Shown here one piece after another: positions 21,614-55,143 of a DNA stretch of 64,000 nt. The DNA is from Pseudomonadota bacterium (GTDB lineage Bacteria; Desulfobacterota; Desulfobulbia; Desulfobulbales; SURF-16): assembly GCA_018897105.1 (NCBI GenBank), contig JAHILF010000106.1:56357-120356 (forward strand), in the 5' to 3' direction. Under the pieces are notes generated by a model. That model was not told the DNA's origin and ran no database searches. It saw nothing but the letters and a program-made list of their open reading frames with translations. Within the stretch, counting starts at the first letter, position 1, and each line of letters starts with the position of its first letter. The position numbers were made by a program, and so were the translations under genes.

Positions 21614-21760
21614 GAAGGAGTTCTTTTGTCTTATTTATTGTTTAATGAAATCGGGGGAAAATGATTTCATGCGGATCAGGCTTTATAAAATGTCGATTAC
21701 CGTGTTGTTCCGGTACGGCCGGAGACTTTCTACGGGTAGATAAGGTTTTGACGGTTTTGC

Positions 21761-21791
21761 AAAAAAAAACCCCGCATTGAGCGGGGTTTTT
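21761..21791 (-). terminator. Rho-independent terminator downstream of the cold-shock gene (bidirectional shape)
   Basis: CCCCGC (21770-21775), loop ATTGA, then GCGGGG (21781-21786). It is flanked by an A9 run on one side and a T5 run on the other. Read on the minus strand, a long U-run follows the stem. Confidence 0.75.
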
Positions 21792-21812
21792 GTAATGGTC
21801 AATTACAGAGGC

Positions 21813-22013
21813 TTACTGCTGGATAACATTCTCTGCAGCCGGACCTTTGGGGCCGTCGACAACATTAAATGTTACACGGGCGCCTTCTGTAAGAGATTTG
21901 AATCCCTGGGCCTGGATTGCGGAATGATGAACGAAAACGTCCTTGCCGCCATCCTGCTCAATAAAACCAAAACCCTTAGCATCATTAAACCATTTAACTG
22001 TACCTTCTGCCAT
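21813..22013 (-). CDS. Cold-shock protein, CspA family
   Basis: [33 protein letters not shown] contains the RNP1 (KGFGFI) and RNP2 (VFVHH) motifs. The protein is 66 aa. Confidence 0.95.
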
Positions 22014-22318
22014 TTTGTACTACTCCTTAAAAACAGGGTTCCGCTTGAGAACCACTTTATAAATTGTCCAATTTACCAGCGGGCAAATCGGTTGGCAGCT
22101 TGTTTGTTCAAACAAAAAAAAACGCACTTCCTCTCTGCAAGGATTGTGCGGTTATTTTTTTTAGTATTTTTTATTTACTACAAACATGTACTGCACACTT
22201 TCAAGATACATATTACACAGCCTGACTGCAAAAAGCTATATATTTATTTTGCCCATGCAAATAAGATCGGTTAGCGCAAATTTTAGCCATGGGCCGTCGC
22301 CCTCCTTTGGCCGGCAAT

Positions 22319-24262
22319 TCATGTGGCCCTCTGTTGTATGATGGGCAGCAGAATGGTGAATGCCGTACCTTTCCCCGGACTGCTTTCCACCTCAATCCTG
22401 CCGCCATGTCTTTTAATGATGCCGTAACTGACGGACAACCCGAGGCCAGTACCCTTGACGGCCGGCTTGGTGGAGAAAAAAGGTTCGAATATCCTGTCCA
22501 TATCATCCGGTGCGATGCCGACCCCGGTGTCGGCAATATGAATGGCGATCTGGTCGCGCTGTTTTTCCGTGGTGATCGTAATCCCTCCCCCCTCTGCCGG
22601 CATGGAGGCTCCGGCATTGTTGAGCATGTTCAATATGACCTGTTTGATCTGATCAGCAATGGCCTGAATGGGCGGCAGATCTCCGGCAAAATATTTTTTC
22701 ACCTTGATTTTTTTCTGGCTGAAATCTTTTTTGACCAGCAATAGCATGTCCTCGATTGCTTCATGCACATCAAGGGTCGCCATGAGGCCGGAGGTTGGCC
22801 GGTTGAAACTCTGCAGGTCCTGGGTCAGTTTGGCGACCCGATCACATTCCTTGATGGCCAGATTCACCAATTCTCTGTTCTTTTCAGCCAGCGTCAGCCG
22901 TTTTCTCAGTCCATCGAGCACGTTGCGGATACCGAAAATAGGGTTGTTGAACTCATGGGCGATGGAGGCGGCCAGCTTGCCGATGGCGCTCAGTTTTTCC
23001 GCATGCAGCAGCTGATTATATGTTTTTTCCAGGGCTTCGCTCCGTTCCGCCACTCTTTCTTCCAGTTTGTCATGGGCCTCCTGCAGGTTTTCTTCGGCAT
23101 ATTTCCGTTCGCTAATCTCAATCTGCAGCCGGCGGTTCGTCTCGGTCAGCTCCGCCGTACGTTGTGAAACAGTGGCTTCCAGACTTGTCTTGTGCTGCTG
23201 CAGCTCTTTTTCCACATTTTTACGGATTTCGATTTCCTCAGTCAGAAAATCATGGATTTTTATCAGGCGTTTCTCCATCCGGCTGATGTGAAAATAGAAA
23301 AGAAGAAACAGGATACCGAGCACGGCCATGCAGACAATGACCAGAATAGTTGAGACCTGCTGTTTGTCGACATCGTCGGTGAAATCCTTGATGGCGATTA
23401 TTTCGCCGATTTCCTCTCCGCTCGCTACCTTAAGTGGGCTGAATCCTCCCCGGTATTTTTTATTCCCCTGGGTGATTTTGAAGATGAGATTTTCTTTTTC
23501 CCCATGGGGCATATTAATGTAGTTAGTGATCTCTTGAGGGACAAAGTCCATTGTTCTGCCGATAATGACATGACGGGGCATCTCCTCCCAACGGCCCTGG
23601 CGACCGGATATTTTTAGTCCTTCTTCCCACATTTGCCTGTTCAAATGGCGGATGTTGACCAGAAAGAAGAAATCGTAACCAAGGATTTCCTTCATGGCCG
23701 GGATAATGTATTCAACCTCCCTGCCCAGTTCGATGTAGCCGATCAATTTGTTGTTTACCACCCAGGGGTGGACAACCCGAAGGGTCAATGTGCCGAATGG
23801 CCCGAGCTCGATGCCGTAGGAGACCGCCTCTGCTTCAGCAACCTTTTTCAAAGTGTAGCGGTCAATGAAATCACCATGGCTTGATGGTTTGTGCACCCGC
23901 AGGAAGCAGGTTTTGTCCAGATTATGAAAGTAGAAGTGAGTAATATGATGGCGGTTCTCAATGTTGCGGAAAATGGATTTGGTGTTTGCATAGAGCAGCT
24001 GTCGGTCCTTGTCAAGAAAGGCTTGATAGACCTTGGGGTCGTCCATGACGAAATCAATGAAGGTATTTAAGTGTTCCGCTTCATTGCGCAGCGTGGTTTT
24101 AAAGAGTTGCTGAACGCTGTTTAACTGTTGGTGGACGTTCTGATCAAACTGATAACGCTGCAGCCAGTATGCCCCGGAAATGGAAAAGGCAAGTAGAAAC
24201 AGCAGGGCAAAGGCCAGGGGCAGGAGAATGGCTTTGCGAATGTGAATGGTAGAACTTCTCAT
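22319..24262 (-). CDS. Sensor histidine kinase with a large periplasmic sensor domain
   Basis: Two TM helices flank a periplasmic domain of about 270 aa, followed by a coiled coil. The H-box is SIAHEFNNPI. ATPase boxes are LNNAGASM, DTGVGI and GTGLGLSVS. Confidence 0.9.
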   Translation of the reverse strand: MRSSTIHIRKAILLPLAFALLFLLAFSISGAYWLQRYQFDQNVHQQLNSVQQLFKTTLRNEAEHLNTFIDFVMDDPKVYQAFLDKDRQLLYANTKSIFRNIENRHHITHFYFHNLDKTCFLRVHKPSSHGDFIDRYTLKKVAEAEAVSYGIELGPFGTLTLRVVHPWVVNNKLIGYIELGREVEYIIPAMKEILGYDFFFLVNIRHLNRQMWEEGLKISGRQGRWEEMPRHVIIGRTMDFVPQEITNYINMPHGEKENLIFKITQGNKKYRGGFSPLKVASGEEIGEIIAIKDFTDDVDKQQVSTILVIVCMAVLGILFLLFYFHISRMEKRLIKIHDFLTEEIEIRKNVEKELQQHKTSLEATVSQRTAELTETNRRLQIEISERKYAEENLQEAHDKLEERVAERSEALEKTYNQLLHAEKLSAIGKLAASIAHEFNNPIFGIRNVLDGLRKRLTLAEKNRELVNLAIKECDRVAKLTQDLQSFNRPTSGLMATLDVHEAIEDMLLLVKKDFSQKKIKVKKYFAGDLPPIQAIADQIKQVILNMLNNAGASMPAEGGGITITTEKQRDQIAIHIADTGVGIAPDDMDRIFEPFFSTKPAVKGTGLGLSVSYGIIKRHGGRIEVESSPGKGTAFTILLPIIQQRAT

Positions 24263-24579
24263 AACTTTTATTGTTGTTCCCCAGAGATCTGCTCAGCAAT
24301 ATCGGGCGAACAGTGCTTTGGGCCTGCGGATAATGGGCCCGGCGAAAAAACTGCTGATTTTTTTTTTGGTAATAAAAATGATAGATATTTACCATGTATC
24401 AACAAGAAGGAGTATTTTTTTTAAGTTTTTCCCGAAAATCGGCTAGAGAACGGGGCTCGGATTCTGCAGATGCAGGGCTAGGCAGAAATAAATGATAAGC
24501 CGCCGGAGACTTCTCCTGGATCGGGAGGCTGGACGTTGAAGTAGTTGAAAATAATAACATGGTCATTCGGGAAACTAAA

Positions 24580-24642
24580 ACTGCATAAGGAGCCGTAAAG
24601 GAACGGTCAGAATTGTACAAGTTGTTTCGTAACGGCTCCTAA
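24580..24642 (+). repeat. 63-nt hairpin repeat, copy C
   Basis: ACTGCATAAGGAGCCGTAAAGGAA...TTTCGTAACGGCTCCTAA. The arms AGGAGCCGT and ACGGCTCCT are complementary. Relative to copy B, a G-to-A change in the left arm is matched by a C-to-T change in the right arm. Confidence 0.65.
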
Positions 24643-24684
24643 GCCGCGGTAGGAAAATATCCAGCCGGTTAATTACTGTGGCAA

Positions 24685-25857
24685 TCAGGATTTCTGGGTT
24701 AATCTCTGCTGAACCGCCTCCATCAGTTCGTGGGCTTTTTCGAAATCAGGATAGAGACGGAGGGTTTTTTTTAGATAGGATTCGGCATCATCATATTGTT
24801 TCTGCAGAAAGAGCAGGCTGGAGAGGTTATAGTTGACAACCTTGTGCTGGGGGTCAAGCTTCAGGCAGCTCATATAAAAGTACTTTGCCTTGTCAAAGTC
24901 TTTATTTTTTCTGGAACGCAGACCGAGCTTGTTTAAGAAATGGATTGTTTTTTCGATATTGTCGTCCTGGATTTTCTTGCCGAAGAGGAGATCTGCCTCA
25001 TCAACAAGCCCGGCCTCAATATAACCATCCAGCACCTCCTTGATCTGATCGGCATTGTTCTTGGCGAGTTGCTGGGCCTCATCCAGATGTTGCTGTGCCC
25101 GGTCGATATCACCGGTTCGTGTGCAGGCCCGGGCAAGGCCGATATGGATGTCAAAGGTATCCGGCATGATGTCGGTTACCTTCTGCAGGTAGTAGGCAAG
25201 ATTGACATAGTCCTCGTTGGCTTGGTATATTTCCGCCAGGGCAAGCAGGGCGCTGATAAACTGTTCTTCAATGACCAGAGATTTCTTGAAATTCAGTTCG
25301 GCATTTTTTCCGTTGCCGAGCTGCTGGTAGATCAAGCCGAGATAATAATAGGGCAGGGCGCTGTCGATGCGGGCCTTACTCGCCGCTTCAAAACTCTCCA
25401 GTGCCTTGTCGTATTCCATGTTTAAGAACAAATATTTGCCGTTGCTGATCGCCTTGTCGTATTCGGTAGGGTATCGCCTGTGGGCAACGACCTTTTTCAC
25501 CAGGTCATCCAGTTGGTTGATGTTTGGCGGCTTAATCAGGTAGTAATCCACCTCTGCCTGCACGCTGCGCATGAAATCTCCCCGCTTATCAGCGCCGGTG
25601 ATCATGATAAAGGGAAGGTCATAGAATCGCCTGGTCTGGCGTATGAGGCGAAGAAGTTCGATGCCGTTCATTTCCGGCATCAGGTAATCGCAGAGAACAA
25701 CATCAATATCTCCTTCCTGTATTCTGTCCCAGGCCTTCAGTCCATTGACCGCGGTGGCATAATTATGGTAGCCCAGTTCGATAAGCATGGATTCAAGCAT
25801 TTTACGCATGGACTGGTTGTCTTCAACGATGAGGATATTGCTGGTCTTGTTCTTCAT
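24685..25857 (-). CDS. Response regulator receiver domain fused to TPR repeats
   Basis: The N-terminal REC has ILIVEDNQ, DVVLCDYLMPEMNG and ITG. The C-terminal roughly 250 aa contain multiple TPR-like repeats (YYYLGLIYQQLGN, LAEIYQANEDY). Confidence 0.9.
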   Translation of the reverse strand: MKNKTSNILIVEDNQSMRKMLESMLIELGYHNYATAVNGLKAWDRIQEGDIDVVLCDYLMPEMNGIELLRLIRQTRRFYDLPFIMITGADKRGDFMRSVQAEVDYYLIKPPNINQLDDLVKKVVAHRRYPTEYDKAISNGKYLFLNMEYDKALESFEAASKARIDSALPYYYLGLIYQQLGNGKNAELNFKKSLVIEEQFISALLALAEIYQANEDYVNLAYYLQKVTDIMPDTFDIHIGLARACTRTGDIDRAQQHLDEAQQLAKNNADQIKEVLDGYIEAGLVDEADLLFGKKIQDDNIEKTIHFLNKLGLRSRKNKDFDKAKYFYMSCLKLDPQHKVVNYNLSSLLFLQKQYDDAESYLKKTLRLYPDFEKAHELMEAVQQRLTQKS

Positions 25858-26101
25858 GCCGGATTAGTCCTTCACTGTTTTTTCTGCAATCATCATAACT
25901 AAATATAATGACGATATTGCCCGTGATGCGCAAGAGAAAAAAATCGAGTTTGCGGGCCGACCGGGCGAGAAAATGGCAAATTTACGAGGTGGATATTGCG
26001 TTCCTCTATGGATTAGGCTTATAAATGAAAGCATAAGAAAAATCGTGATTACCTCCTCCCCTTGCCGACTGAATGTTGCCGGCAGACCAGGCCACCGGAA
26101 A

Positions 26102-43741: not shown

Positions 43742-43806
43742 AATAGCAGACAAACAGAGAGGGTAAACCGGTCGATTGCGGCACCGGTTGAGCAGGCCGG
43801 TAATTG

Positions 43807-44124
43807 TTATTCTCTGTCCACCCAGTTCTGTCTTTCCTTGAAGAACTCGTAGGCAAAAAATGCTGTGCCGGTGACGATAAGCGCTGAAGCCAGCAGGGCA
43901 GGTATCCAGTTGCTCGACCCCGTCTGTGGCAATGTCATATCTGGCAGGTCACGTTTGCAGTAACGGCATACCAACGCGTTGCTGTAGATTTTCTCTTTGC
44001 AATATGGACAGGTTTGCATGTTCATGTTTTTCAACATATCTTGCTGATTATAGATTGTCAAGTCACTGTTGCCGCAGCTTTCTAATTCATGATAACAGTC
44101 CGGTGTTGCCTGGGAATTTTTCAT
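43807..44124 (-). CDS. Zinc-ribbon membrane protein, hypothetical
   Basis: An AAGGAG RBS is present. CPYCKEKI...CRYCKR is a zinc ribbon, followed by the TM helix WIPALLASALIVTGTAFFAY. It lies 20 nt downstream of the glucosaminidase gene on the same strand. Confidence 0.55.
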   Translation of the reverse strand: MKNSQATPDCYHELESCGNSDLTIYNQQDMLKNMNMQTCPYCKEKIYSNALVCRYCKRDLPDMTLPQTGSSNWIPALLASALIVTGTAFFAYEFFKERQNWVDRE

Positions 44125-44143
44125 TTCTCTCCTTGCTGATTTA

Positions 44144-45127
44144 TCAGTCTTTCATCAGGACGACAGGTCGTCCCTGGGATAATTTTGCCCTGTCGAAAAT
44201 GGTCAGTTTGTTATGGCCGATGATGCCCTGCAGGGTTTCCACATATTCCTGTCTCTTTTCCGAGTAAAATTCCAGGGTAGATAACAAACTGTAGACATCC
44301 AGATCCTCTTTTTGCTCCAGGCGCTGCTCCGCCCTGGCCAGACGGAAATTTCTGTATGCCGTATGGGTGTTGATGTTCATGGCATAGGCCTTGATGGAAT
44401 CAAGCAGGGTCGGGAAGTCGGCAATGCGGTAATCCCCTCTGTCTTCCCGTTGATTTTCCGGCATCATGCCTTCTCCCCCCCAACACCACTGGCCGAAGAG
44501 CGCATTGCCTTCCGTGGCAAAGCGTGAGGTGGCATAACCGCTTTCATAGGCCATCTGGCCCAGGGCTATGGAGACGGGAATGGTGTCAACCCGCAGGAAG
44601 ATCTTTTTAAAAAATTCATCAGTGAGGTCCACCGGCCCGTCTTCCTTCACGACCTTGTAACGCCAGGCAAGATTCTCCAGCCAGGCAAGATCCTCATCGT
44701 CCGGCTGATTCCCTTCCCTGTACTGCTCCTCCAGAACCTGCAGGTATTTTCTTTCCGCGCTGATCTGTTCATTGACTCGGAGCACCAGGGGCAGCATGGT
44801 GCGGTAGAAAAGGCTCTTTTTGCTGGCAACGGGCTGGTCGTCCTCCAAGCTGCTGTAGATGGTGTCCATGTAAATCCGGGGCACTTCAAAGTTGGCGTTT
44901 TCGATTCCGCACCTGGTATAGCCGATGGACTCGTAGTAGTCCCATATCTGCCCTGCCGATTCCAGGGTCAGTTTCTCCGGTTCCTCTTCAGGAACCTCCC
45001 ACGGCCGGTGGGTGATGGGTTGATGCAGGTAAAGATAGCATGCCAGGCTGACAAGAATGACTGCTCCGAGAACCGCCGCGGTGATCAGTGTTTTTTTCAT
45101 AACTTTGGCCTTCTTTCCATGTGACAT
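44144..45127 (-). CDS. Glucosaminidase domain protein (Bax/FlgJ-C-like muramidase family)
   Basis: An N-terminal TM/signal segment is present. ALGQMAYESGYATSRFATEGNALFGQWCW is typical of mannosyl-glycoprotein endo-beta-N-acetylglucosaminidase domains. Confidence 0.8.
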   Translation of the reverse strand: MSHGKKAKVMKKTLITAAVLGAVILVSLACYLYLHQPITHRPWEVPEEEPEKLTLESAGQIWDYYESIGYTRCGIENANFEVPRIYMDTIYSSLEDDQPVASKKSLFYRTMLPLVLRVNEQISAERKYLQVLEEQYREGNQPDDEDLAWLENLAWRYKVVKEDGPVDLTDEFFKKIFLRVDTIPVSIALGQMAYESGYATSRFATEGNALFGQWCWGGEGMMPENQREDRGDYRIADFPTLLDSIKAYAMNINTHTAYRNFRLARAEQRLEQKEDLDVYSLLSTLEFYSEKRQEYVETLQGIIGHNKLTIFDRAKLSQGRPVVLMKD

Positions 45128-45337
45128 CTTTATGATAGACTGAAATTCAGCAAGAAGTGGGCCAGCACGGTGAAATAGCCATTATCAACCGGACGATGAA
45201 AAAGAAATATACTAAATTGTACCCGTATTTGCCGGGCAAGACAAGTAAATCGATGGCATGGGGCAGGCGCGGGGGAGGGATTTGCTGGCAGAATGAACAC
45301 CAGAAAGAAGTGAATCGCAGATAAAAAATTTAGTAAG

Positions 45338-45841
45338 TTATAGGCCTTTTCCCCAAAACTTGATTCTTTTTTGGCATTCTCCAGTCGGAAGCCTTGAGTT
45401 GAGCTCCATGAGTTGAATCAGTTTTCCCCTTGCTTCTTTTTCTGAAATCAGGCCAGTGGCAATAATTTCATCCAGTACCCAGAGAATACCGTGCACGACA
45501 ATATTGTTTTGTTCGGCAGTTCGGCGCAAAGCGGCGTCCCCGGTGAGCAGGGTTGCGGATATTTTCCTTGAGAGATACAAACATGAACAGTCTGCAATGG
45601 AGAGAAAGGGATTTTCAACTTCAAGGAGTTGAATCTGCAACAGTTCCTCAAACGAAAATCCCTGTTTGGCCAAGAGTCCTTTTTCAAGAAAGGGAAAGAG
45701 GACCGCAGCGTTTCCTTCCAGGATTTCAGCGAACGCCATGTCTGTCACCTGAAAATCGTATTCCAAATGAAAAAAGGTATCAAGCAGATCGATTTTCAGG
45801 AGATCAATCAGGATATTTGCGTCGTTGACCAGGAAAATCAT
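45338..45841 (-). CDS. PIN-like (DUF3368/COG2405-type) nuclease-fold protein, putative toxin
   Basis: Acidic PIN positions are present (LVNDANILIDL, SIADCS, LLTGDAALR). The C-terminal VHGILWVLDEIIATGLIS helix resembles DUF3368. The start overlaps the upstream gene stop by 4 nt. Confidence 0.65.
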   Translation of the reverse strand: MIFLVNDANILIDLLKIDLLDTFFHLEYDFQVTDMAFAEILEGNAAVLFPFLEKGLLAKQGFSFEELLQIQLLEVENPFLSIADCSCLYLSRKISATLLTGDAALRRTAEQNNIVVHGILWVLDEIIATGLISEKEARGKLIQLMELNSRLPTGECQKRIKFWGKGL

Positions 45842-46899
45842 GAAACGATGTGGGCCTCCTGTTCAAAATCGGCAAGCGATAGATTGAGAAGTTCCGCGGC
45901 CTTGCTGTAACTGATAATCTGCTCGGCCGCGGCATGGAGCACGAGCTGCTTGAAACGATTGGACTTTTCCATGCCTGAGTATTTTCCCGGCTCTTCCTTC
46001 TGCCATCCATGCTTGCTGACATAAATCCGGAACATTTTAAAGGTATGCTCTGAAATGAGGCCAAGGGTGAGAGCCCGGGCCATAATGGCCTGCATGGAAA
46101 TGCCATAAATTCCTTTGATCTTTTTTAGTTCCCATTCGGTAACTTTCTCCCGTTTTCCCCCGAACTCTTCCCGAATAATCTTTTCCGGCAGGAGAAGAGC
46201 ACCGGCAAAAGCGTGGCATAATTTCTCATGTTTGTCTGCTTTGCAGTTGGAAAAATCCAGCAGGAGATGGGCCAGTTCATGGGCGAGGGTGAATCGTTTG
46301 CGCACGCAATCCCCCTCCTTGAAGACAGCGATTACCGGTACCGGAATATCAGTACCTACCGTATAACCGGAAAGACCGACAAAATCAGCGCTTGCTTCCA
46401 CCTCTAGAACCTTGAATCCTTTGTCCTCAAGAAGCTCGGTAAGTTGCTGGATTGGCGCTTCGCCTAGGTTCCAGTTTTGCCGAATTTCTGCTGCTGCCTG
46501 TTCAATATCCGCATGGCTGTTTATTTTCCGTTTGGAAATAGGATTGCTTGAGTTGTGAGAAAGTTTGAGGATATCCTCAAGTTCAAGATACTTCTGCAGG
46601 AAATCCAGAGCCTGATATCTGATGCGGTTCTCTTCCTTGCTGCTGAGTTTCGATTTCTTCCGGAAGGAAAGTCCGGTGATTTTAAGTTTTGAAGATCGGA
46701 AAAAATAATCTACCTTAACATCAAGCGCTTTTGCCAGGGCAAGAAGGACTTCGCTGCTCGGTTTAATCTGTCCTTTCTCATACTTGCCGATTGCCTGCTT
46801 GCTTATCAGCGAGCCAGTTGACCGGGCAAGCTGTTCCATGCTCACCCCTGCCATCTTCCGGGCCGATCGTAATCTTTGGCCAAAATCAGTAATCATCAT
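45838..46899 (-). CDS. XRE-family HTH fused to an ImmA/IrrE (COG2856) metallopeptidase domain
   Basis: The N-terminal HTH is RLRSARKMAGVSMEQLARSTGSLISKQAIGKYEKG. The HExxH motif is in FTLAHELAHLLL. A GAGGGAGG RBS precedes the ATG at 46899, which is preferred over the TTG at 46923. Confidence 0.85.
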   Translation of the reverse strand: MMITDFGQRLRSARKMAGVSMEQLARSTGSLISKQAIGKYEKGQIKPSSEVLLALAKALDVKVDYFFRSSKLKITGLSFRKKSKLSSKEENRIRYQALDFLQKYLELEDILKLSHNSSNPISKRKINSHADIEQAAAEIRQNWNLGEAPIQQLTELLEDKGFKVLEVEASADFVGLSGYTVGTDIPVPVIAVFKEGDCVRKRFTLAHELAHLLLDFSNCKADKHEKLCHAFAGALLLPEKIIREEFGGKREKVTEWELKKIKGIYGISMQAIMARALTLGLISEHTFKMFRIYVSKHGWQKEEPGKYSGMEKSNRFKQLVLHAAAEQIISYSKAAELLNLSLADFEQEAHIVS

Positions 46900-46914
46900 G
46901 GTGCCTCCCTCTCT

Positions 46915-46952
46915 AGTTGACAAATATCATTTTTTCTTGCTGTTTGTCAACT
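46915..46952 (-). promoter_or_regulatory. Promoter with a perfect 10-bp inverted repeat (putative XRE operator) upstream of the XRE-ImmA gene
   Basis: AGTTGACAAA (46915-46924) and TTTGTCAACT (46943-46952) are perfect reverse complements. Read on the minus strand the region is TTGACA, then 16 nt, then GATATT. One repeat arm covers the -35 and the other lies just downstream of the -10. Confidence 0.55.
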
Positions 46953-47114
46953 ACAAGGAGGCGAGGCGTAGTTTTTATGAAAGCAGGGAATTAACCCGAG
47001 AGCTCTATTAAAATAGAGTCAAGAGAGTATTTTTTTAATGATCACATTTCGTTATCCCTTATTATCTTGGGTGGTATAGATAAGTTGTCCCTTCGAAAGT
47101 TTTCAGCATCACGG

Positions 47115-50100
47115 TTATTCTTCATATTGCTCACGTTCACGGCGAGACCTTTCAATGTTTTGCTCCGCATGTTTCTTGAGATATTCGTATAAACGATAAG
47201 CAGGTGAAAACCGTGGAATTTCCTTGAGCGCTTTCTCCGCGTCTTCTTTCATCTTGATGTCCTGAGGAAATGGCTCTCCTGATTTTCCTGATCGTAGGCC
47301 TGAAATTGCTGATCCAATCAATGCGCTAACAACATCATCGAGCCGTTCTTTGCTTTGTTGTTGGGCCTTTCCCAAAAATCGGATAATGAACGGACGATGT
47401 TCAAGGACAACATTGGGGGATGCTTTTTTAAGTATCTGCGAGATGACTTGCAAATCTCCAGGGGTGGCCATATCTATCCAATTCTGAAGAAAGCCAATCA
47501 ATTCGTTGTCAAAAGGCTGAAACATGGCATCAAAAAGCTCGGCAGCACGATGCTGAAACAGGTTGTCTTCTGTGGATGATTTCATCCATTGGGCTACCTG
47601 CCGGAGGAGTGGACCGAATTCCTGTGACTCGCGGAAACGTAAAGGGACATGACAATACGGGCCGTAATTGCATGGACGATAGTGCCAATCTTGAGTTTTT
47701 GCCGCGTGTTCTACTCGCTTCATGAAGAATGCAGCAGTGCGCTTTGTATGATATTTTGAAGTTTTGGAAAGAAAAGTCTCGATCCAATATTTATTGAGTT
47801 TTGGTAACAGCATCAGCTTGGTAAGGAAATAGTCAATGTCATCTTCGGTGAGCATCCTAAAAGGGATCATCTTGTCACCGTAAAAGAACATGAATACATC
47901 CTCTGCAATATTGCCTGACATCCCGATATCAACATATTTGAGCAGCTCAATTGCAAGCCTTAGGTCATTTTTTGCAACTATTCGTATTGCTTGAACGGCA
48001 CGCTTGGAAACCCATTCATCTTTTGATGCTAAGACTGTCTTTAGAAGAGAGAGGTCTTTTTCACCATTGCGCATTTGGGTTGGGTTCAGTCCGCTGTAAG
48101 CACCACCTACTGCAGCATGGAGAGCTGGGTTGTTCGTGTCAAGGAAACGAGCGGCTATATCCAGGGCTTTTACATGGTTCTCGATGAGAAGTTCTGTGAG
48201 GGCTATGTCCGCAAATTGTATTGTTTTTGAGGCAGGATTACTAAGCGCATTATTGACGGTGGCATCGGCAAAAGATAAGGATGATTGGGTAAGGTAACCA
48301 TATAGAATGTAAGCGGATATGCTTCCTGCTGCAAAATTGAGTTCGATATGGGTAAGTATTGACTCTATGAAAGTGCGTAGTTGCTCTCCCTCTGGGTAGG
48401 CGGCAAGAAGATCGTTTGCAAGCGTACTAATATGCGTATCCCATTCTCTATTGTCAAGCTTTATGTCACCGCTCTCATGTAGATTGATCCATCCATCGAT
48501 CAGGGCCAGTGTGGTGCGGAATTCAAGGGAATCAGGCAGTGATTTGATGATTCGCTTGGCTATCGGCGTAGTAGTATCGTTATCTGCATTGTTTGCATGC
48601 CATGATACTGAATGGGCGATTTCAATCTGTACAAGAGAGTCAAGAGTCTCGGTCTGCATCACTTTTTCTATGCCCTTGAGAGTCTTGACGTAAGCCTTTT
48701 CCCAGTCTTCATGATGCTTTTTGTCCCCCGATCTGGAGTAGTACCGGACTCCATCAGCCAGAAATCGGGCTGCCAGGACAGCAATCCTCGTTTTGGGAGA
48801 GGAAAGGAGCTTAAGTGCAGCTTTGATGACTTTTTCTTTCAGAGGTGCAATAAAAGAATAGTCAACGGGAAACCAGCTAATCGTAAAATTTATCCCATGC
48901 GATTCCGTAAAATCCCCTTCGGTTTTAAGGATACTCTTCAGTATGTCAAAAGGGGTATAGAGGTGGTTCCACGAAGCATCGTCTTTAATGAGATTGAGGG
49001 CAAATTCAACCACCACCTCGTTATATCCAAAAGGCTTGTTCCTTTCTGCAGCGCACATTTCGGCAAGGACGCGGATTGCATGCCCAGGATGCTGACTCAG
49101 TTCTCTGTGGTCATCCTTCCCTATCTCCCAAAGTAATTCGCAGACACCGTGCAGATGCTCGAAATTGTAAGCTATGTGTTTGAGGATGTTTGGCAACTCG
49201 GCAAGGTAGCGACCTTCTCGCAAAAGTTGCTCGACAAAGGACAGCGCCTTCGCAGGTTGGTAGTAGGCAACGGAGGTTACTGCATCTATGTGCGGGTCGG
49301 AATATTGGTAAGATGGCTTCAGTCTTTTCCATATACCATCCAGCAATTTGCTGTTGCTCGGACATCCATTTGTCCTGCGCCAATCAAGTTTTCCGAGATT
49401 AAGCAGAATATTTTTAACATGAGCTTCACCTGCTTTATCGAAGACTGCCTCCGCATATCCGGTTGACGTGTCATTATGTCCAATGCATGCTTTCTCGATG
49501 ATAAAATCGGCAAGCAAATCAGGTGATAACCTGAAATTACCGCCGCGCTTGAAGAGTACCCCGGCATTGGCAAGCAGAAGGATTAAGCGGTTTACTTCAT
49601 GGGTGGGAATTCCTTCCACTTGCTCCATAATGGCGGCAATAGCTTTGTCCTCAGGGTGAAAGGGCTGGATGAGGGCGAGGACCTTAAGTAATTTTTCGAT
49701 TTGCCCATCATCTCCTTTGCTCCCTATGTTCCCGGTAATAATGTTTTGGAATTTTCCGAAAATGGTTGCGCGAAATAATTCTTCATTTTTTGCAAATTCC
49801 AGATGGTTAATTTTTTCCTTTGCAACAATCTGTGCTCCGATCACAGTCGCAAGAGGACAATCGAGGGTAAGGCGAGCAATATCTTTAGCCGCGATTTCTG
49901 GTCCGTTCATCTCCCCAAGCACGAGTGAGGCAAGTTCTGTTGCCTGTTTAATGGTAAACGGGTTGAGTTCTATTTCCGCAATGTGTTCACCGCAAAGTGA
50001 AAAACAGCTGGCTTGTGCCTTTATGTAGTCGAGACCGTATGGGCGGAAGGCGAGTAGAAGCTTCGCCTTGTTTGAGGATGTCGCTGCATATTGAAAGAGA

Positions 50101-51143
50101 AGTTGAAGGTTGCTCTCATCATGTGCGTCATCAACGACAAGAACCTTTTCCCTTTTCCCTAGGTCTTCCAGGCTTTTTTCTGTGATTTCCTTACGAGGAG
50201 AAAGAAAGCGGACCAACACTGAATTATGCGCAATCTGATATGTTTCAATCGCCTCCTTGAGAACACGCGATTTCCCTGAACCACCTGCGCCCACGAGAAG
50301 AATAGCCCGTTTTTTGGGGTCCGAGAGAGCTGCAACCGTGTCTTGGGTCTCATGGGATCTCCCGATGAGCTTCCATTTATGGTTGAATGCGCTCCTTTCA
50401 TCCATAAATGGCTCAAAGAAATCTTTTGTGGTTTGCCATGGGCCTGCTTCCATCTCACCCAGCAAGGCAAGGCGCTGCCCCGGAAAGAAAATATCAACGA
50501 GTTTTACCTGATCATCATTAGAAAGATTCTGCCTGATTTCTCGCGAAATGTCTTCTTTGTCCCAAATATCCCATGTCGGGTGCTTTCGAATTGCATCACG
50601 GGATTGCGGGCTTGCGACACGAGAGATGAGTAGGAATTTTTTATCCGCTTCTTTAGTATGTTTTGCAACGGCAGTATGGACATCTTTAGGCCCGAATTGC
50701 TGTACTCGCTTACATTGGAAAGAATATGTTGTTTTGTCGGGGAAGGTTACATCAACATCGAGTCCCTCTTGCGTATGTCCTGAATCACCAGCGCGGTGTA
50801 CATTGGCTAAAGGATGTAGCTTAGCCAAAAAATGATGGCAAAAACGCTCAAAGCTGTCCGGCTTGAGGGCGTCAACAGGGAATGGTTGATCGAAGGGTGT
50901 TACGATCATTTTAGGCAAGTAGCCAGCAGCAGCCATAAGTTCATAAGAGTCGGCTTTTAAGGCAGCTGCAATGAGGGGTATTTGCTTATCTCGTGGGCGA
51001 GAAAGTCCCGATTCCCATCGACTCACCGTCTGTTGAGTGGTTTTGATTAGCTTGGCAAGTTCTGACTGTTGAGAAAATCCTGCTTCCTGACGAAGTTTGG
51101 CGAACAGGGTTCCGAAATCTTTATATCGGGCTTCGTGATCCAT
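47115..51143 (-). CDS. Large STAND-type P-loop NTPase: XRE-HTH, Mrr-like restriction-endonuclease-fold domain, NTPase and about 950 aa of helical repeats (Avs-like architecture)
   Basis: - HTH: LRQEAGFSQQSELAKLIKTTQQTVSRWESG.
- Mrr_cat-like region: FERFCHHFL...GDSGHTQEGLDVDVTF...YSFQCKRVQQFGPKDV.
- Walker A: LLVGAGGSGKS (about 50268-50291).
- Walker B: VLVVDDAHD (about 50118-50144).
- The remainder is long and alpha-helical.
- A consensus promoter lies inside the extended ORF, so the ATG at 51143 is the likely start. Confidence 0.85.
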   Translation of the reverse strand: MDHEARYKDFGTLFAKLRQEAGFSQQSELAKLIKTTQQTVSRWESGLSRPRDKQIPLIAAALKADSYELMAAAGYLPKMIVTPFDQPFPVDALKPDSFERFCHHFLAKLHPLANVHRAGDSGHTQEGLDVDVTFPDKTTYSFQCKRVQQFGPKDVHTAVAKHTKEADKKFLLISRVASPQSRDAIRKHPTWDIWDKEDISREIRQNLSNDDQVKLVDIFFPGQRLALLGEMEAGPWQTTKDFFEPFMDERSAFNHKWKLIGRSHETQDTVAALSDPKKRAILLVGAGGSGKSRVLKEAIETYQIAHNSVLVRFLSPRKEITEKSLEDLGKREKVLVVDDAHDESNLQLLFQYAATSSNKAKLLLAFRPYGLDYIKAQASCFSLCGEHIAEIELNPFTIKQATELASLVLGEMNGPEIAAKDIARLTLDCPLATVIGAQIVAKEKINHLEFAKNEELFRATIFGKFQNIITGNIGSKGDDGQIEKLLKVLALIQPFHPEDKAIAAIMEQVEGIPTHEVNRLILLLANAGVLFKRGGNFRLSPDLLADFIIEKACIGHNDTSTGYAEAVFDKAGEAHVKNILLNLGKLDWRRTNGCPSNSKLLDGIWKRLKPSYQYSDPHIDAVTSVAYYQPAKALSFVEQLLREGRYLAELPNILKHIAYNFEHLHGVCELLWEIGKDDHRELSQHPGHAIRVLAEMCAAERNKPFGYNEVVVEFALNLIKDDASWNHLYTPFDILKSILKTEGDFTESHGINFTISWFPVDYSFIAPLKEKVIKAALKLLSSPKTRIAVLAARFLADGVRYYSRSGDKKHHEDWEKAYVKTLKGIEKVMQTETLDSLVQIEIAHSVSWHANNADNDTTTPIAKRIIKSLPDSLEFRTTLALIDGWINLHESGDIKLDNREWDTHISTLANDLLAAYPEGEQLRTFIESILTHIELNFAAGSISAYILYGYLTQSSLSFADATVNNALSNPASKTIQFADIALTELLIENHVKALDIAARFLDTNNPALHAAVGGAYSGLNPTQMRNGEKDLSLLKTVLASKDEWVSKRAVQAIRIVAKNDLRLAIELLKYVDIGMSGNIAEDVFMFFYGDKMIPFRMLTEDDIDYFLTKLMLLPKLNKYWIETFLSKTSKYHTKRTAAFFMKRVEHAAKTQDWHYRPCNYGPYCHVPLRFRESQEFGPLLRQVAQWMKSSTEDNLFQHRAAELFDAMFQPFDNELIGFLQNWIDMATPGDLQVISQILKKASPNVVLEHRPFIIRFLGKAQQQSKERLDDVVSALIGSAISGLRSGKSGEPFPQDIKMKEDAEKALKEIPRFSPAYRLYEYLKKHAEQNIERSRREREQYEE

Positions 51144-51170
51144 ACACATTATCCTTGTAGTTAAAGTTGA

Positions 51171-51203
51171 ACACATTTTATGTGTATTACGTTTTGTTGT
51201 CAA
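51171..51203 (-). promoter_or_regulatory. Sigma70-type promoter of the STAND gene with an overlapping palindrome
   Basis: Read on the minus strand: TTGACA (51198-51203), a 17-nt spacer, then TAAAAT (51175-51180). An AAGGA RBS lies 8 nt before the ATG at 51143. The palindrome ACACAT-TTT-ATGTGT (51171-51185) overlaps the -10. A further ACACAT lies at 51144-51149. Confidence 0.6.
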
Positions 51204-51453
51204 GTATTTTTTCTCGATTAGGGTGTTACTTCGGCGATTGCTGGCTGAAAACGTCTTTTAAGGATGGCAACAAGTAGTAATTTGTAATTGATCTCTATCT
51301 AAGTCGATTCTTCTCAGCGTCCTTTCCGGTTGTCAGCCACAGGCTGATCTGTTATAGGGGAAAAATTATTTTCAGCTGTCCGGTGTTGTGCCGGAACATT
51401 TCTTACATCTCATATCCTTAAATAAAGCTGTCAACTCCACTACTTTTCAGCCT

Positions 51454-52503
51454 GTGCATATTCTTATTATCAAAACAAGCGCCATCGGCGACGTCATCCA
51501 CACCCTGCCGGCTCTCCACAGTCTGCGGCGTCATTATCCCCAGGCCCATATCACCTGGGTGGTCGAAGAGGCGGCGGCTGACATTATAGCCGGTCATCCG
51601 GAGCTTGACCGGGTGCTTATTTCCAAAAGGAAACGCTGGGTGCAGACCATGAAGAGCGGGCCGAACCGGCTGCAGGCCTGGCAAGAGCTGCGAGCCTTTC
51701 TCCGGGAGCTGCGCGACACCCGCTATGATCTGCTCATCGATTTCCAGGGTCTGCTGAAAAGCGGCATGCTGGTTGCCGCCAGCCGCGCCAAACGCAAGGT
51801 GGGGTTCGGCCGCGGCATGGAGCATGCCGAATGCAGCTATATTTTTTTAAATGAAAGGGTGCCGGCGGTGGACATGAACATCCATGCCGTAGAGCGGGAA
51901 CTCATGCTGCTTGAGGGCATCGGTATTAAGACCGATGAGGTTGTCTTTAATCTGCCGCTCAGCGACGAGAACTTCCGGCAGGTCGAGTCACTGCTCCGCT
52001 CCAGGGGTATAGCCGACCCGTCCAGGATTATCCCGATCAATCCGGTGGCCACCTGGCCGACCAAACTGTGGGATAACGCCGGTTTTGCCCGGGTTGCAGA
52101 CTGGCTTGCCAATCAGGGCCGGTCGGTGGTTTTCACCGGCGGCAAAGGGGACCGACCGGTCATTGACGATATCATAGCCCGCATGCAGCAACCGGCCGTA
52201 AGTCTCGCCGGCGAGACCACCCTGAAGACCCTGGCTGCCCTGTACCGCCTGGCCCCGCTGGTGGTCTCCACCGATACCGGTCCCATGCACCTTGCCGCGG
52301 CCGTGGGCACCCCGGTGGTGGCTGTTTTCGGCTCCACCGCCCCCTGGCGCACCGGTCCCTATGGCGAGCGGCACAAGGTGGTTCGCCTGGACCTGCCGTG
52401 CAGTCCCTGTTTGAAAAGGGAATGTGACCACAGGCGCTGCATGAATGATCTGGCCCCGGAGCAGGTGATCAGTGCGGTAGAAGGTCTACTTGCAGGCAGT
52501 TGA
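51454..52503 (+). CDS. Glycosyltransferase family 9 (LPS heptosyltransferase-like)
   Basis: ILIIKTSAIGDVIHTLPAL, GGKGD and TDTGPMHLAAAVGTPVVAVFG are GT9 signatures. The likely GTG start at 51454 gives the usual N-terminus. The ORF track extends it to 51388. Confidence 0.85.
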   Translation: MHILIIKTSAIGDVIHTLPALHSLRRHYPQAHITWVVEEAAADIIAGHPELDRVLISKRKRWVQTMKSGPNRLQAWQELRAFLRELRDTRYDLLIDFQGLLKSGMLVAASRAKRKVGFGRGMEHAECSYIFLNERVPAVDMNIHAVERELMLLEGIGIKTDEVVFNLPLSDENFRQVESLLRSRGIADPSRIIPINPVATWPTKLWDNAGFARVADWLANQGRSVVFTGGKGDRPVIDDIIARMQQPAVSLAGETTLKTLAALYRLAPLVVSTDTGPMHLAAAVGTPVVAVFGSTAPWRTGPYGERHKVVRLDLPCSPCLKRECDHRRCMNDLAPEQVISAVEGLLAGS

Positions 52504-52770
52504 AATCAGCAGACCCAGGGATTTTCAATTGCCCCTTAAGATATACTTGCGAACAATCCCTTTTTTCTTATCCGTATTACTACCTATTTCCCTTGACTTC
52601 TTTTTGATTGCGGTTATTTAATATAAAGGATGCGTCATTTTGCCGCACCGGTTTTCCCGTGACGTTTTACGGTTTTTAGCATTCATATTAATTTCCCTGT
52701 CGGAACTGATGTGAAATCTCCGGGGGATTGATTTCATGTATCTGTAACGGCTGAGGGTTTAAATCGAATT

Positions 52771-55143
52771 ATGACAGTTCTGCCAAGACCTGAGAGCCGT
52801 TTCCCTCCGTCGCCGGTTTCGGATGAAACGGGGGTTGAGCTGAAGATCCAGGGCGTGGTGCAGGGGGTCGGTTTTCGGCCTTTTGTCCATCGCCTGGCGT
52901 CCCGCTTCGGCTACTCCGGCACGGTGGTTAACAGCGCCGAAGGGGTGGTGATCAGGCTGGCGCCGCCTCTGGCCCATCTGGACAGCTTCCTGCAATGTCT
53001 GCAAGAGGAAGTGCCGCCTCTTGCCGGCATCACCTCGCTTGAGCAGACGAACATCGATGTTTTTCCCAGTGAACCCGGCTTTGTCATCCTCGAAAGTGAA
53101 CGGTCAGGTGCGGCGAGCACCATGATCCCGCCTGACGCCGCGGTCTGTGATGACTGTCTGGCTGAGCTGTTCAGCAAAAATGACCGCCGCTATCTCTATC
53201 CGTTCATCAACTGCACCAACTGCGGGCCGCGCTTCACCATTGTCGAGTCGATTCCCTATGACCGGCCGAACACGTCGATGAAGGTTTTTCCCATGTGTCC
53301 GGACTGCAGCGGGGAGTACCATGATCCGGGTAATCGCAGATTCCATGCCCAGCCCAATGCCTGCTGGCAGTGCGGACCACGCCTGAGCTGGCATGACGCT
53401 GACGGCCGTCGTCTGCAATGTGAAGATCCTCTGCAGGAGGCCGGCCGCGCCCTGGCCCAGGGTAAGGTCGTGGCTATGCGCGGACTCGGCGGTTTTCATC
53501 TCAGCGTTGATGCGGGTAGTGATACGGCGGTGCAAAGGCTGCGGCACAGGAAAAGAAGACCCAGCAAGCCCCTGGCGGTTATGGTGGGGGACGTGCAGGC
53601 GGCGATGAAAATCTGCAGCATATCCTTGCCGGAAAAGGAGTCGTTGCGTTCCTGGCAGCGGCCCATCGTGCTGCTGGCGAAAAGAGATGACAGCAGCCTG
53701 GCCCCATCAGTTGCGCCTGGCATTCTCCATCTCGGCCTGATGCTGCCCTACACCCCTTTTCATCATCTGCTTTTTCGGGTGGCGGAGACGCCGCCTGCGC
53801 TGGTAATGACCAGCGGCAACAGAAGTGATGAGCCGATCTGCACGGCAAACGAGGAGGCAATTGACAAACTGGCCGGCATCGCAGATTTTTTTCTGCTCCA
53901 TAACCGTGATATCGTCACCCGGGCGGATGATTCGGTGGTCAGGGTCATCGCGGGCAAAGCTCGGCCTCTGCGCCGCTCTCGCGGCTATGTGCCCCGCTCC
54001 GTGGCGCTTCAACAGGATCTGCCGGCAGTACTTGCCTGCGGCGCGGAATTGAAGAACACCTTCTGCATGACCCGGGGCAGGACGGCCTACCTGAGTCAGC
54101 ACATCGGGGATCTCTCCACAATGGAAACCCTGGAATTTTTTGAAGAGAGTGTTCGGCATATGCAGCAGGTGCTGGAGTTTGAGGCCGAGGCCGTTGCCTG
54201 TGATCTGCATCCTGATTACCTGAGCACCCGTTTTGCCGAAAGCCTGGGCCGCTCCCTGTACCGGGTGCAGCATCATCATGCCCATGCCGCGGCGGTGATG
54301 GCTGAGCACGGCCTTGATGAAGATACGTTTGCCGTGATTCTTGACGGCACGGGCTTCGGCCCGGACGGCACGGTCTGGGGCGGGGAGATTCTGCTGGCGG
54401 GATTTTCCTCTTTTGAACGGCTGGCCAGCCTGGAACAGATGATGCTCCCCGGCGGTGATGCCGCGGCCCGGGAACCCTGGCGTATGGCCATGGCTGCCCT
54501 GTGGGCGGCTTATGGCGAAGAGGGATTGGTCGGCAGAGATCACCTGGTCCCGGCCCTGGCAAAAATAGATGCTGCCAAAAAAGAGACCCTGGAGCAGATG
54601 ATGTCCCGCAGGGTCAACACTCCCCTGACCTCAAGCTGCGGCAGGCTCTTTGATGCCATGGCAGGGCTGCTTGATCTCTGTCTGGTTTCCGGCTATGAAG
54701 GCCATGCCGCCATGGAGCTTGAGGCAACGGCCTGGCGGGCGGTACGGGACGACTGGATGCATGTTGGGGCAGGGGAAATATACTTTCCCGTGGAGATCAG
54801 AAAAGTACAGGGCCGCCTGGTGATCGGCACCAGGTCGCTGATCCGGTCGGTGGTCGACTGCCTGGCCGGCTCCGCTGACCCGGGAGAGATTGCCCTTGCC
54901 TTTCATCGCTGGCTTGCCCTGTCCGTAACCGCCGTGATCAAGGAACTGGCCGCAAAACGCGGCCGGAAAAAGGTGGTGCTCGGCGGCGGCTGCATGCAGA
55001 ATGGTCTGCTGCTTGGCGGGCTGAGCAAAGATCTCCAGGCCGCAGGATTTCAGGTCTATTCCGCCGAGAAAGTGCCGGCCAACGATGGCGGGCTTGCCCT
55101 GGGGCAGGCGGTTATTGCCGGGATGAACTATGTAAAGAGTTGA
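52771..55143 (+). CDS. hypF: Carbamoyltransferase HypF ([NiFe]-hydrogenase maturation)
   Basis: The N-terminus is acylphosphatase-like (GVVQGVGFRPFV). Two zinc-finger pairs are present (CDDCLAEL...CTNCGPRF and CPDCSGEY...CWQCGPRL). YrdC-like and Kae1-like domains follow. Confidence 0.95.
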   Translation: MTVLPRPESRFPPSPVSDETGVELKIQGVVQGVGFRPFVHRLASRFGYSGTVVNSAEGVVIRLAPPLAHLDSFLQCLQEEVPPLAGITSLEQTNIDVFPSEPGFVILESERSGAASTMIPPDAAVCDDCLAELFSKNDRRYLYPFINCTNCGPRFTIVESIPYDRPNTSMKVFPMCPDCSGEYHDPGNRRFHAQPNACWQCGPRLSWHDADGRRLQCEDPLQEAGRALAQGKVVAMRGLGGFHLSVDAGSDTAVQRLRHRKRRPSKPLAVMVGDVQAAMKICSISLPEKESLRSWQRPIVLLAKRDDSSLAPSVAPGILHLGLMLPYTPFHHLLFRVAETPPALVMTSGNRSDEPICTANEEAIDKLAGIADFFLLHNRDIVTRADDSVVRVIAGKARPLRRSRGYVPRSVALQQDLPAVLACGAELKNTFCMTRGRTAYLSQHIGDLSTMETLEFFEESVRHMQQVLEFEAEAVACDLHPDYLSTRFAESLGRSLYRVQHHHAHAAAVMAEHGLDEDTFAVILDGTGFGPDGTVWGGEILLAGFSSFERLASLEQMMLPGGDAAAREPWRMAMAALWAAYGEEGLVGRDHLVPALAKIDAAKKETLEQMMSRRVNTPLTSSCGRLFDAMAGLLDLCLVSGYEGHAAMELEATAWRAVRDDWMHVGAGEIYFPVEIRKVQGRLVIGTRSLIRSVVDCLAGSADPGEIALAFHRWLALSVTAVIKELAAKRGRKKVVLGGGCMQNGLLLGGLSKDLQAAGFQVYSAEKVPANDGGLALGQAVIAGMNYVKS

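Follow-up and report, generated by a model that had tools for sequence, protein, structure and literature searches.

A low-G+C accessory islet with two independent, putatively defensive modules at a variable site between a cell-wall gene and a lipopolysaccharide gene of a Desulfobulbales bacterium

How does a compact, AT-rich group of three genes come to stand between two core genes for the cell envelope, and do its members belong together? This question is raised by a stretch of 64,000 nucleotides (positions 56,357 to 120,356 of contig JAHILF010000106.1, assembly GCA_018897105.1), hereafter the window, whose nearest relatives are metagenome-assembled genomes (MAGs) of the Desulfobulbaceae/Desulfobulbia. 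A first-pass annotation of the window had described an AT-richer accessory islet of three genes, encoding a PIN-like protein, a protein with an XRE-type helix-turn-helix (HTH) and an ImmA-type domain, and a STAND protein, and had proposed that it was acquired horizontally. Our analysis leads us to read window positions 45264-51321 as a horizontally exchanged accessory islet at a variable intergenic site, composed of two independent, self-contained modules that most likely serve phage defense or addiction. We assign this reading a probability of roughly 70%.

The base composition of the islet is unlike that of its surroundings. Its content of guanine plus cytosine (G+C) is 45.4%, versus 53.0% in the remaining window, and is the minimum among 1159 equally long sliding windows; non-overlapping windows of islet length have a mean G+C of 52.9% (standard deviation 2.65) and a minimum of 46.5%. 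At third codon positions, G+C (GC3) is 0.476 in the PIN-like gene, 0.523 in the gene for the HTH-ImmA protein (rmrA-like in what follows), and 0.439 in the STAND gene, as against 0.646 ± 0.054 for 38 other open reading frames (ORFs), which corresponds to z-scores of −3.1, −2.3, and −3.8, respectively. The dinucleotide signature distance of the islet, 60, is the highest in the window, approximately tied with that of one other segment. The first-pass annotation had drawn its impression of AT-richness from four counts over 60 nucleotides each (26/60 at 45361-45420, 25/60 at 48181-48240, 40/60 at 53101-53160, and 29/60 at 44581-44640). These counts are exact, and the deviation they pointed to extends to sliding-window G+C, GC3, and the dinucleotide signature.

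The same site looks different in related genomes. We mapped the window proteins onto related loci and documented the state of the site in five related genomes, which are designated here by locus handles. In the closest relative, L001 (core proteins 88–97% identical), matching blastn blocks cover 43800-45263 and 51322-52594, and the same conserved flanks enclose another cargo of 5.1 kb (L001:4842-9934) that encodes a UvrD-like helicase-ankyrin protein, a PDC-S31-like protein, and a HigB/HigA pair. The site is empty in L171 (core proteins 77–91% identical), where synteny is the same, the flanks align to approximately 45255 and then again from 51322, and a non-homologous spacer of about 330 bp takes the place of the islet. 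It is also empty in L004 (core proteins 66–79% identical), which has a 314-bp gap between the two flanking genes. A further arrangement is found in L005, L006, and L008, in which the heptosyltransferase gene directly follows a small zinc-ribbon ORF, without the glucosaminidase. The same three genes recur in L082 (heptosyltransferase 77% and HypF 68% identical), with identities of 77% for the STAND protein, 91% for the RmrA-like protein, and 80% for the PIN-like protein, and there the heptosyltransferase-side junction aligns with that of the window through to the start of the STAND gene. The idea that the islet would not occupy this position in all relatives is therefore borne out, and the glucosaminidase–heptosyltransferase junction acts as a hotspot whose cargo varies from genome to genome. 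L002 and L003 were also considered as empty-site comparisons and were dropped, the region upstream of the heptosyltransferase gene being rearranged in both.

Composition and location can be combined in L082, whose islet has 47% G+C within flanks of 62–68% and a GC3 of 0.48–0.56 versus 0.77–0.85 in those flanks. The islet is thus alike in composition in the window and in L082 (approximately 45–47% G+C), although the compositions of the two hosts differ. The nearest STAND homologs elsewhere likewise lie 9–14 points of G+C below their own flanks.

On both sides, the islet ends exactly at the conserved promoter region of the adjacent gene. The region upstream of the glucosaminidase gene (45101-45263) is conserved in L001, that upstream of the heptosyltransferase gene (51322-51453) is conserved in L001, L004, L082, and L171, and the insertion point lies between these two divergent promoter regions. 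Non-coding DNA within the islet totals less than 400 bp. Searches for the customary marks of mobility agree with the first-pass annotation, which had seen neither an integrase nor a tRNA nor attachment-site (att) repeats: no tRNA or transfer-messenger RNA was found in the window, no Rfam family at the gathering threshold within 44000-52600, and no integrase, transposase, or other mobility domain among the window ORFs (ORF list and Pfam), while direct and inverted repeats in the flanks were limited to chance-level 12–25-mers, no pair of which spans both junctions. Because no integrase, tRNA, or repeats were found, homologous recombination in the conserved flanks would be the simplest mechanism of exchange. 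The proposal of a horizontally acquired defense or accessory islet is supported by composition and by presence and absence among relatives, and its mechanism is one that we infer. The features of the locus are collected in Table 1.

Table 1. Features of the islet and its flanking genes, in window coordinates (aa, amino acids; GT9, glycosyltransferase family 9; NTPase, nucleoside triphosphatase; pLDDT, predicted local distance difference test)
Feature	Position	Strand	Basis or remark
Variable segment (islet proper)	45264..51321		6058 bp; homology of relatives ends at 45263 and restarts at 51322
Bax-like glucosaminidase, core gene, left flank	44144..45100	-	Pfam Glucosaminidase, NCBIfam "protein bax", synteny
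PIN-like (COG2405/DUF3368) putative toxin, 167 aa	45338..45841	-	Weak DUF3368 match; 4-bp overlap with upstream gene
RmrA-like putative antitoxin/regulator, XRE HTH and ImmA/IrrE M78 Zn-peptidase, 353 aa	45838..46899	-	Pfam, PADLOC, call in source assembly
rmrA-PIN promoter and candidate operator, GTTGACA-N22-TGTCAAC enclosing TTGACA-16-GATATT	46914..46953	-	Repeat search, promoter scan
Single-gene STAND (NLR-like) protein, 1342 aa: HTH, Mrr-like nuclease, STAND NTPase, alpha-solenoid	47115..51143	-	Pfam, models, Foldseek
C-terminal HEAT/ARM-like alpha-solenoid, putative sensor, aa 600-1342	47118..49346	-	Model with pLDDT 87, nearly all helix
STAND NTPase and winged-helix/helical lid, aa ~258-600	49344..50372	-	Pfam nSTAND_NTPase5, AAA_16, Foldseek
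Mrr-like PD-(D/E)xK nuclease domain, aa ~95-195	50559..50861	-	Weak Mrr_cat, invariant motif, alpha/beta core in model
XRE/Cro-C1 type HTH, aa 8-73	50925..51122	-	Pfam HTH_3 2e-9; five helices in model
Possible operator O2, degenerate second half-palindromic site ACAAGGATAATGTGT, over the ribosome-binding site just before ATG	51144..51158	-	Read from sequence
Candidate operator O1, perfect palindrome ACACATAAAATGTGT, overlapping the -10 hexamer	51171-51185	-	Conserved in L082
STAND promoter, TTGACA(51203-51198)-17-TAAAAT(51180-51175)	51171..51203	-	Promoter scan 11/12
Lipopolysaccharide heptosyltransferase (GT9), core gene, right flank	51454..52503	+	Pfam Glyco_transf_9 9e-53, TIGR02193

Within the islet, three minus-strand ORFs occupy 45338-45841, 45838-46923, and 47115-51203, as the first-pass annotation had it. 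Its calls of the three products agree with Pfam and PADLOC, and an HTH_3 domain is present in two of the three genes, the rmrA-like and STAND genes, as it had claimed. Although the ORFs lie where they had been placed, two of their starts had been drawn too far upstream. The mechanical rmrA-like ORF of 361 amino acids runs to a TTG at 46923 that lies inside a promoter hexamer, and the actual start is the ATG at 46899; the mechanical STAND ORF (1362 amino acids) begins with a TTG at 51203 that forms part of the −35 hexamer of the STAND promoter, and its actual start is the ATG at 51143.

An accessory islet between cell-wall and lipopolysaccharide genes this is, but not a single three-gene unit: it comprises two independent modules. 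A gap of 215 bp separates the STAND gene from the rmrA-PIN pair, and the promoter scan finds a separate sigma70-like promoter for either unit. Approximately 50 full-length STAND homologs from metagenomes (25–63% identity) have no RmrA-like or PIN-like neighbor, with L082 as the only exception. Conversely, the RmrA-PIN pair is found without a STAND gene, and with its 4-bp overlap kept, in Desulfosediminicola flagellatus, Desulfolithobacter dissulfuricans, and a Desulfobulbaceae MAG, where its neighbors include transposases, an integrase, PcfJ, an Mrr-like gene, and an AAA_21/DUF4435 gene.

The smaller module resembles a toxin–antitoxin (TA) pair. Its upstream gene encodes a protein with matches to HTH_3 (8e-16) and Peptidase_M78 (7e-11) and with a HELAH zinc motif. 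In PADLOC, this protein is matched by 14 RmrA models (best 4.6e-50, aligning residues 16-354), and the NCBIfam model of the spr1629-family antitoxin aligns with its full length (1e-40). Its partner has a weak DUF3368 match, and PF11848 is precomputed for this protein and for more than 100 homologs, some of which also carry the PIN family PF01850. Among 32 homologs, D7, E39, and D84 of the PIN-like protein are invariant and D102 is kept in at least 90%, and its best profile matches in the PDB, both weak, are the PIN protein 1o4w and VapC6. The subfamily found here is largely confined to the Desulfobulbaceae/Thermodesulfobacteriota. A fused HTH-M78 gene directly upstream of the PIN-like gene, on the same strand, is common to the window, L082, L164, L166, and L167, and the same arrangement, with a COG2405/DUF3368 gene following a fused HTH-DUF955 gene, was put forward by Matelska et al. 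(2017, PMC5499597) as a predicted TA system of the three-component type. RosmerTA was defined by Millman et al. (bioRxiv 10.1101/2022.05.11.491447), and in a later study the ImmA/Rosmer node was linked to PIN-like partners and a RosmerTA system was validated as anti-phage (Ernits et al., 2023, PMC10440598). We regard the pair in the window as Rosmer-like and not as a member of Rosmer.

The control of this pair may be read from its promoter. The repeat GTTGACA-N22-TGTCAAC occurs with identical spacing upstream of rmrA in all five loci examined (the same five that share the gene order), and as a sequence pattern it suggests autoregulation of the rmrA-PIN operon. Either an operator or promoter sequence kept merely by descent would account for this conservation. 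The PIN-like nuclease would thus be the toxin of a bicistronic TA or Rosmer-like pair, and the HTH-M78 protein would both neutralize this toxin and repress the operon through the repeat. Toxicity and neutralization are to be taken as predictions.

The larger module consists of one gene, whose product is identical to GenBank MCG2749952.1 (JAKLQG010000174.1, GCA_022013535.1, a "Proteobacteria" MAG). Pfam, structural models, and Foldseek together outline a tripartite layout of N-terminal effector, central STAND NTPase, and C-terminal repeat. The HTH at the extreme N-terminus has profile matches to the 434 and P22 C2 repressors. In the domain that follows, E99, D129, and Q143-C-K145 form an Mrr-type PD-(D/E)xK motif of putatively catalytic residues, and the NTPase has a Walker A motif of G285-x-GGSGKS and a Walker B motif at D338-D339. 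Across 40 homologs of 48–78% identity, all the residues of the nuclease motif (E99, D129, Q143-C-K145) and G288, G290, K291, D338, and D339 of the NTPase are invariant. Precomputed annotations assign the Mrr_cat family PF04471 to about one quarter of the homologs and the nSTAND_NTPase5 family PF25199 to nearly all of 120, the window protein included. An AlphaFold model of residues 1-660 has a pLDDT of 81, and Foldseek matches it to Apaf-1 (3e-7), to Avs4 as second-best (8dgf, portal-bound; 5.5e-7 over 616 columns), and further to Avs5, SAMD9, and plant and animal NLRs.

The C-terminal half has a more generic appearance. The Pfam scan leaves approximately 750 residues after the NTPase without annotation, and Foldseek relates residues 600-1342 to FANCI, SF3B1, CAND1, and importins; a solved Avs sensor is not among the matches. 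The sequence search of the PDB with the STAND protein returned only the HTH and the P-loop, and the family therefore has no solved relative. Inside the solenoid, at approximately 47630-47700 (residues 1150-1173), a conserved loop, W-x-YRPCN-x-GPY-x-HVPLRFRES, is nearly invariant in 40 homologs; it is modeled with low confidence and may be a ligand, metal, or oligomerization site.

The layout of the protein is widespread and constant in length. In more than 550 homologs, conservation runs through the entire protein of about 1340 amino acids, and a search with the C-terminal 743 residues returned 1111 representative clusters. Because nearly all of these clusters share a length of 1330–1390 amino acids and have the domain at approximately 600-1340, the architecture is fixed, not shuffled. 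The distribution of the family is patchy, with occurrences in Methylomonas, Bradyrhizobium, and Syntrophales and on plasmids or megaplasmids of Ralstonia, Rhizobium, and Xanthobacter. Among 112 neighbors from 32 loci of STAND homologs, some are candidates for CBASS, AbiD, Shedu, DrmD, Avs1b, or PDC systems and many are housekeeping genes, which makes for a mixed picture in raw counts. Literature searches found no paper on this architecture for nSTAND5 and none on autoregulation of an HTH + Mrr + STAND protein, and the nSTAND passages in PMC8195603 and PMC7159879 concern other architectures.

The promoter of the STAND gene carries a conserved palindrome. The motif ACACA-N5-TGTGT (at most one mismatch) is present between −110 and +10 of the start in 18 of 31 non-redundant STAND loci, versus 0.37% of control windows of 120 nucleotides taken from the same loci. 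In the homologous loci compared (L082-L131), a second copy often lies 27–28 nucleotides downstream of the first, over the ribosome-binding site. In the whole 64-kb window, the palindrome is matched only once, at the promoter of the STAND gene itself. This single match is not significant alone, at least one being found in 54 of 100 shuffles, and the palindrome has its weight because its position is conserved across loci. The XRE HTH of the same protein probably uses this palindrome as its operator, and the conservation suggests that the HTH represses the promoter of its own gene. Autorepression is the most economical reading because the STAND family has no conserved neighbors.

These elements would fit together as follows. 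Expression would be kept low by the N-terminal XRE HTH, bound to ACACA-N5-TGTGT operators at the −10 hexamer and the ribosome-binding site of its own gene. Upon infection, the HEAT-like solenoid would bind a ligand derived from the invader, ligand binding would license oligomerization of the STAND module in a manner dependent on nucleoside triphosphate, and oligomerization would activate the Mrr-like PD-(D/E)xK nuclease, with DNA cutting and abortive infection as the outcome. More speculatively, proteins of this HTH-Mrr-STAND-solenoid type may be widespread, uncharacterized single-gene NLR-like immune sensors with a repressor domain of their own, in which trigger-induced oligomerization both activates the nuclease and pulls the HTH off its operator, a positive feedback that would boost the sensor during infection, and in which the trigger would be a new class of ligand for a HEAT-like solenoid unlike the solved Avs sensors. 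We advance this last proposal tentatively, as a possibility that is at present somewhat doubtful.

Several results, on origin as well as on function, count against the reading of 45264-51321 as a horizontally exchanged islet of defense or addiction modules. Neither a mobility gene nor a tRNA nor an att-like repeat was found at the islet, and the more distant L082 shares both the islet and its junction, which makes an ancient presence followed by loss or replacement conceivable. An islet ancestral to the clade, lost in L171 and L004, replaced in L001, and low in G+C for reasons intrinsic to its genes, would account for the shared heptosyltransferase-side junction, for the missing mobility genes and repeats, and for a STAND identity between the window and L082 (77%) that is near the 68–79% of core genes. 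However, it requires that the islet was lost or replaced independently at least three times among closer relatives, and the patchiness of the STAND family across phyla and the 91% identity of RmrA, compared with 68–77% for the flanking core proteins, speak for exchange. Moreover, the islet has approximately 45–47% G+C in both hosts despite flanks of 53–60% and 62–68%, and therefore no amelioration. We consider the ancestral islet distinctly improbable. Even less credible is a decayed remnant of a larger mobile element (a prophage, an integrative and conjugative element, or a transposon) with its mobility genes deleted. Although RmrA-PIN pairs elsewhere adjoin transposases, an integrase, and PcfJ, and TA modules commonly stabilize mobile elements, neither integrase or transposase fragments nor terminal repeats nor a tRNA were found here; the islet is poor in non-coding DNA, its two ends lie precisely where the conserved promoter regions of the neighboring core genes begin, and no STAND homolog was found in the phage genomes that were searched, a result that tells against such a remnant and against a defense role of the STAND protein alike.

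With respect to function, the STAND protein matches no PADLOC Avs/AVAST or other defense model at E ≤ 0.01 beyond its HTH and P-loop, in a comparison made with the PADLOC profiles of Avs1-5, outside of which lie the newer Avs7-21 and the 589 STAND clades of PMC13581612. Its Mrr_cat match reaches 19.2 bits, below the 21-bit cut-off, and its nSTAND_NTPase5 match 33.2 bits, below the cut-off of 34. Most neighbors of STAND homologs are housekeeping genes, so that the association with defense islands is partial, and HTH + STAND + repeats is also the architecture of transcription regulators. In PADLOC, the PIN-like protein matches no RmrT model and has only a weak match to PDC-S70 (9.5e-5), and the pair is therefore called Rosmer-like. 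Could the STAND protein then be a STAND-class transcription regulator of the MalT/AfsR type, with the HTH as its output and the Mrr-like fold degenerate or DNA-binding? An N-terminal HTH with a conserved candidate operator, the many homologs among housekeeping genes, the missing Avs match, the annotation of the protein as an XRE-family regulator in its sources, and the frequency of non-defense STAND clades (PMC13581612) would all suit such a role. Yet the candidate operator is conserved at the gene's own promoter and no neighboring target operon is conserved; the PD-(D/E)xK residues are invariant across the 40 homologs; architecture and fold parallel those of Avs4, with its Mrr nuclease, STAND module, and helical sensor; and the gene moves horizontally and is richer in A+T than the genomes that carry it. 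A regulator is accordingly unlikely in our estimation. The remaining alternative would unite the three genes in one system, in which the RmrA-like M78 protease, by analogy with ImmA and its substrate ImmR, cleaves the STAND protein's XRE HTH and thereby releases or activates the nuclease-STAND part, with the PIN protein as second effector. The genes are indeed adjacent and co-oriented in the window and in L082, both the STAND and the RmrA-like proteins carry an XRE-type HTH, and HTH repressors are known substrates of ImmA-type proteases (PMC10440598). Against this stand the approximately 50 STAND homologs that have no RmrA or PIN neighbor, the three other genomes with RmrA-PIN pairs and no STAND gene, and the 215 bp, separate promoters, and different palindromes that divide the two units, and we hold a single system to be the least probable of these alternatives. 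The preferred reading therefore remains that of two modules in one exchanged islet, with ligand sensing, nuclease activation, autorepression, and an anti-phage effect of the STAND protein as its predicted components.

Some further features of the surroundings may be recorded. The alternative cargo of L001 is a mosaic in composition, with 60% G+C in the gene of the 1029-amino acid UvrD-like superfamily 1 helicase-ankyrin protein and 42% in that of the 284-amino acid PDC-S31-like protein. In two further relatives (L169:1311-6550 and L170:2142-6395), a Kup potassium transporter lies beyond the glucosaminidase and is followed by variable genes, among them one for a 1331-amino acid protein that has no Pfam match, beside an AAA_14/DUF4143 ATPase gene, one for an ankyrin protein, and an Unstab_antitox gene. 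Possibly a second defense-like patch of variable content exists there. On the other side of the site, the heptosyltransferase and hypF genes are adjacent in the window (gap at 52503-52771), L001, and L171, and the corresponding gap measures 3.7–4.6 kb in several relatives (L082, L002, L003, L005, L006, and L008 were compared). In L082 (L082:2959-6470), it holds genes for the small and large subunits of a NiFe hydrogenase and for a cytochrome b. Elsewhere in the window, at approximately 20100-26000, there is a second zone of lower G+C (46.5% over 6 kb, with 1-kb bins down to 42%), which contains genes for a PAS-GGDEF protein, a dCache histidine kinase, and a response-regulator-TPR protein together with an unannotated ORF of 165 amino acids (GC3 0.51). 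The zone was weighed as another islet and set aside, since these are ordinary signaling genes, and no mobility or defense signal was noticed in it.

Taken as a whole, this is a fairly ordinary defense/TA islet, whose anti-phage function is a prediction, and a routine example of the turnover of small defense/TA cargo between core genes, in this case within a lineage of uncultured sulfate reducers and with no visible mobility gene. The rmrA-PIN pair adds a Desulfobulbaceae-centered subfamily to the predicted HTH-M78/PIN class of TA systems. The STAND family and its candidate operator are the only parts of the islet that invite follow-up: they open a cheap way to study how bacterial NLR-like sensors stay silent and what they sense. 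The description of this family, with its fixed HTH-Mrr-NTPase-HEAT-like layout, invariant catalytic motifs, and conserved promoter palindrome, is a more useful outcome of the analysis than the islet itself.

The closest parallels among known systems differ for the islet and for each of its modules. Like defense islands and hotspots between core genes, the locus combines alternative defense/TA cargos and empty states with the same flanks and a deviant composition; unlike them, it spans only 6 kb and comes with neither an integrase nor a tRNA. The STAND protein shares with Avs4 (8dgf) the domain order of putative effector nuclease, STAND NTPase, and large helical putative sensor, the conserved Walker A and B and PD-(D/E)xK motifs, and the nature of a single-gene, horizontally mobile system. 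It differs from Avs4 in that it has no profile match to the PADLOC Avs models and its NTPase falls into nSTAND_NTPase5 instead of the Avs clades, in that an extra XRE HTH precedes the nuclease and a conserved candidate operator lies at its own promoter, and in that its putative sensor is like generic HEAT/ARM solenoids and unlike the solved Avs sensors.

The smaller module resembles several known systems. The spr1629/spr1630 family is represented by an antitoxin model that covers the whole RmrA-like protein, but the score of 139.6 is far below the equivalog cut-off of 335, which makes that protein a relative of spr1629 and not an orthologue. With RosmerTA, the pair has in common a gene for an HTH and an ImmA/IrrE Zn-peptidase that matches RmrA and a two-gene operon with a small partner. 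That partner is, however, a PIN-like COG2405/DUF3368 nuclease here, outside the RmrT models, whereas the validated RmrT toxins include a membrane-depolarizing protein (PMC10440598). A further counterpart is the predicted TA system formed by HTH-DUF955 (COG2856) and PIN-like (COG2405/DUF4411) proteins (PMC5499597), with which the rmrA-PIN module agrees exactly in pairing, gene order, and strand.

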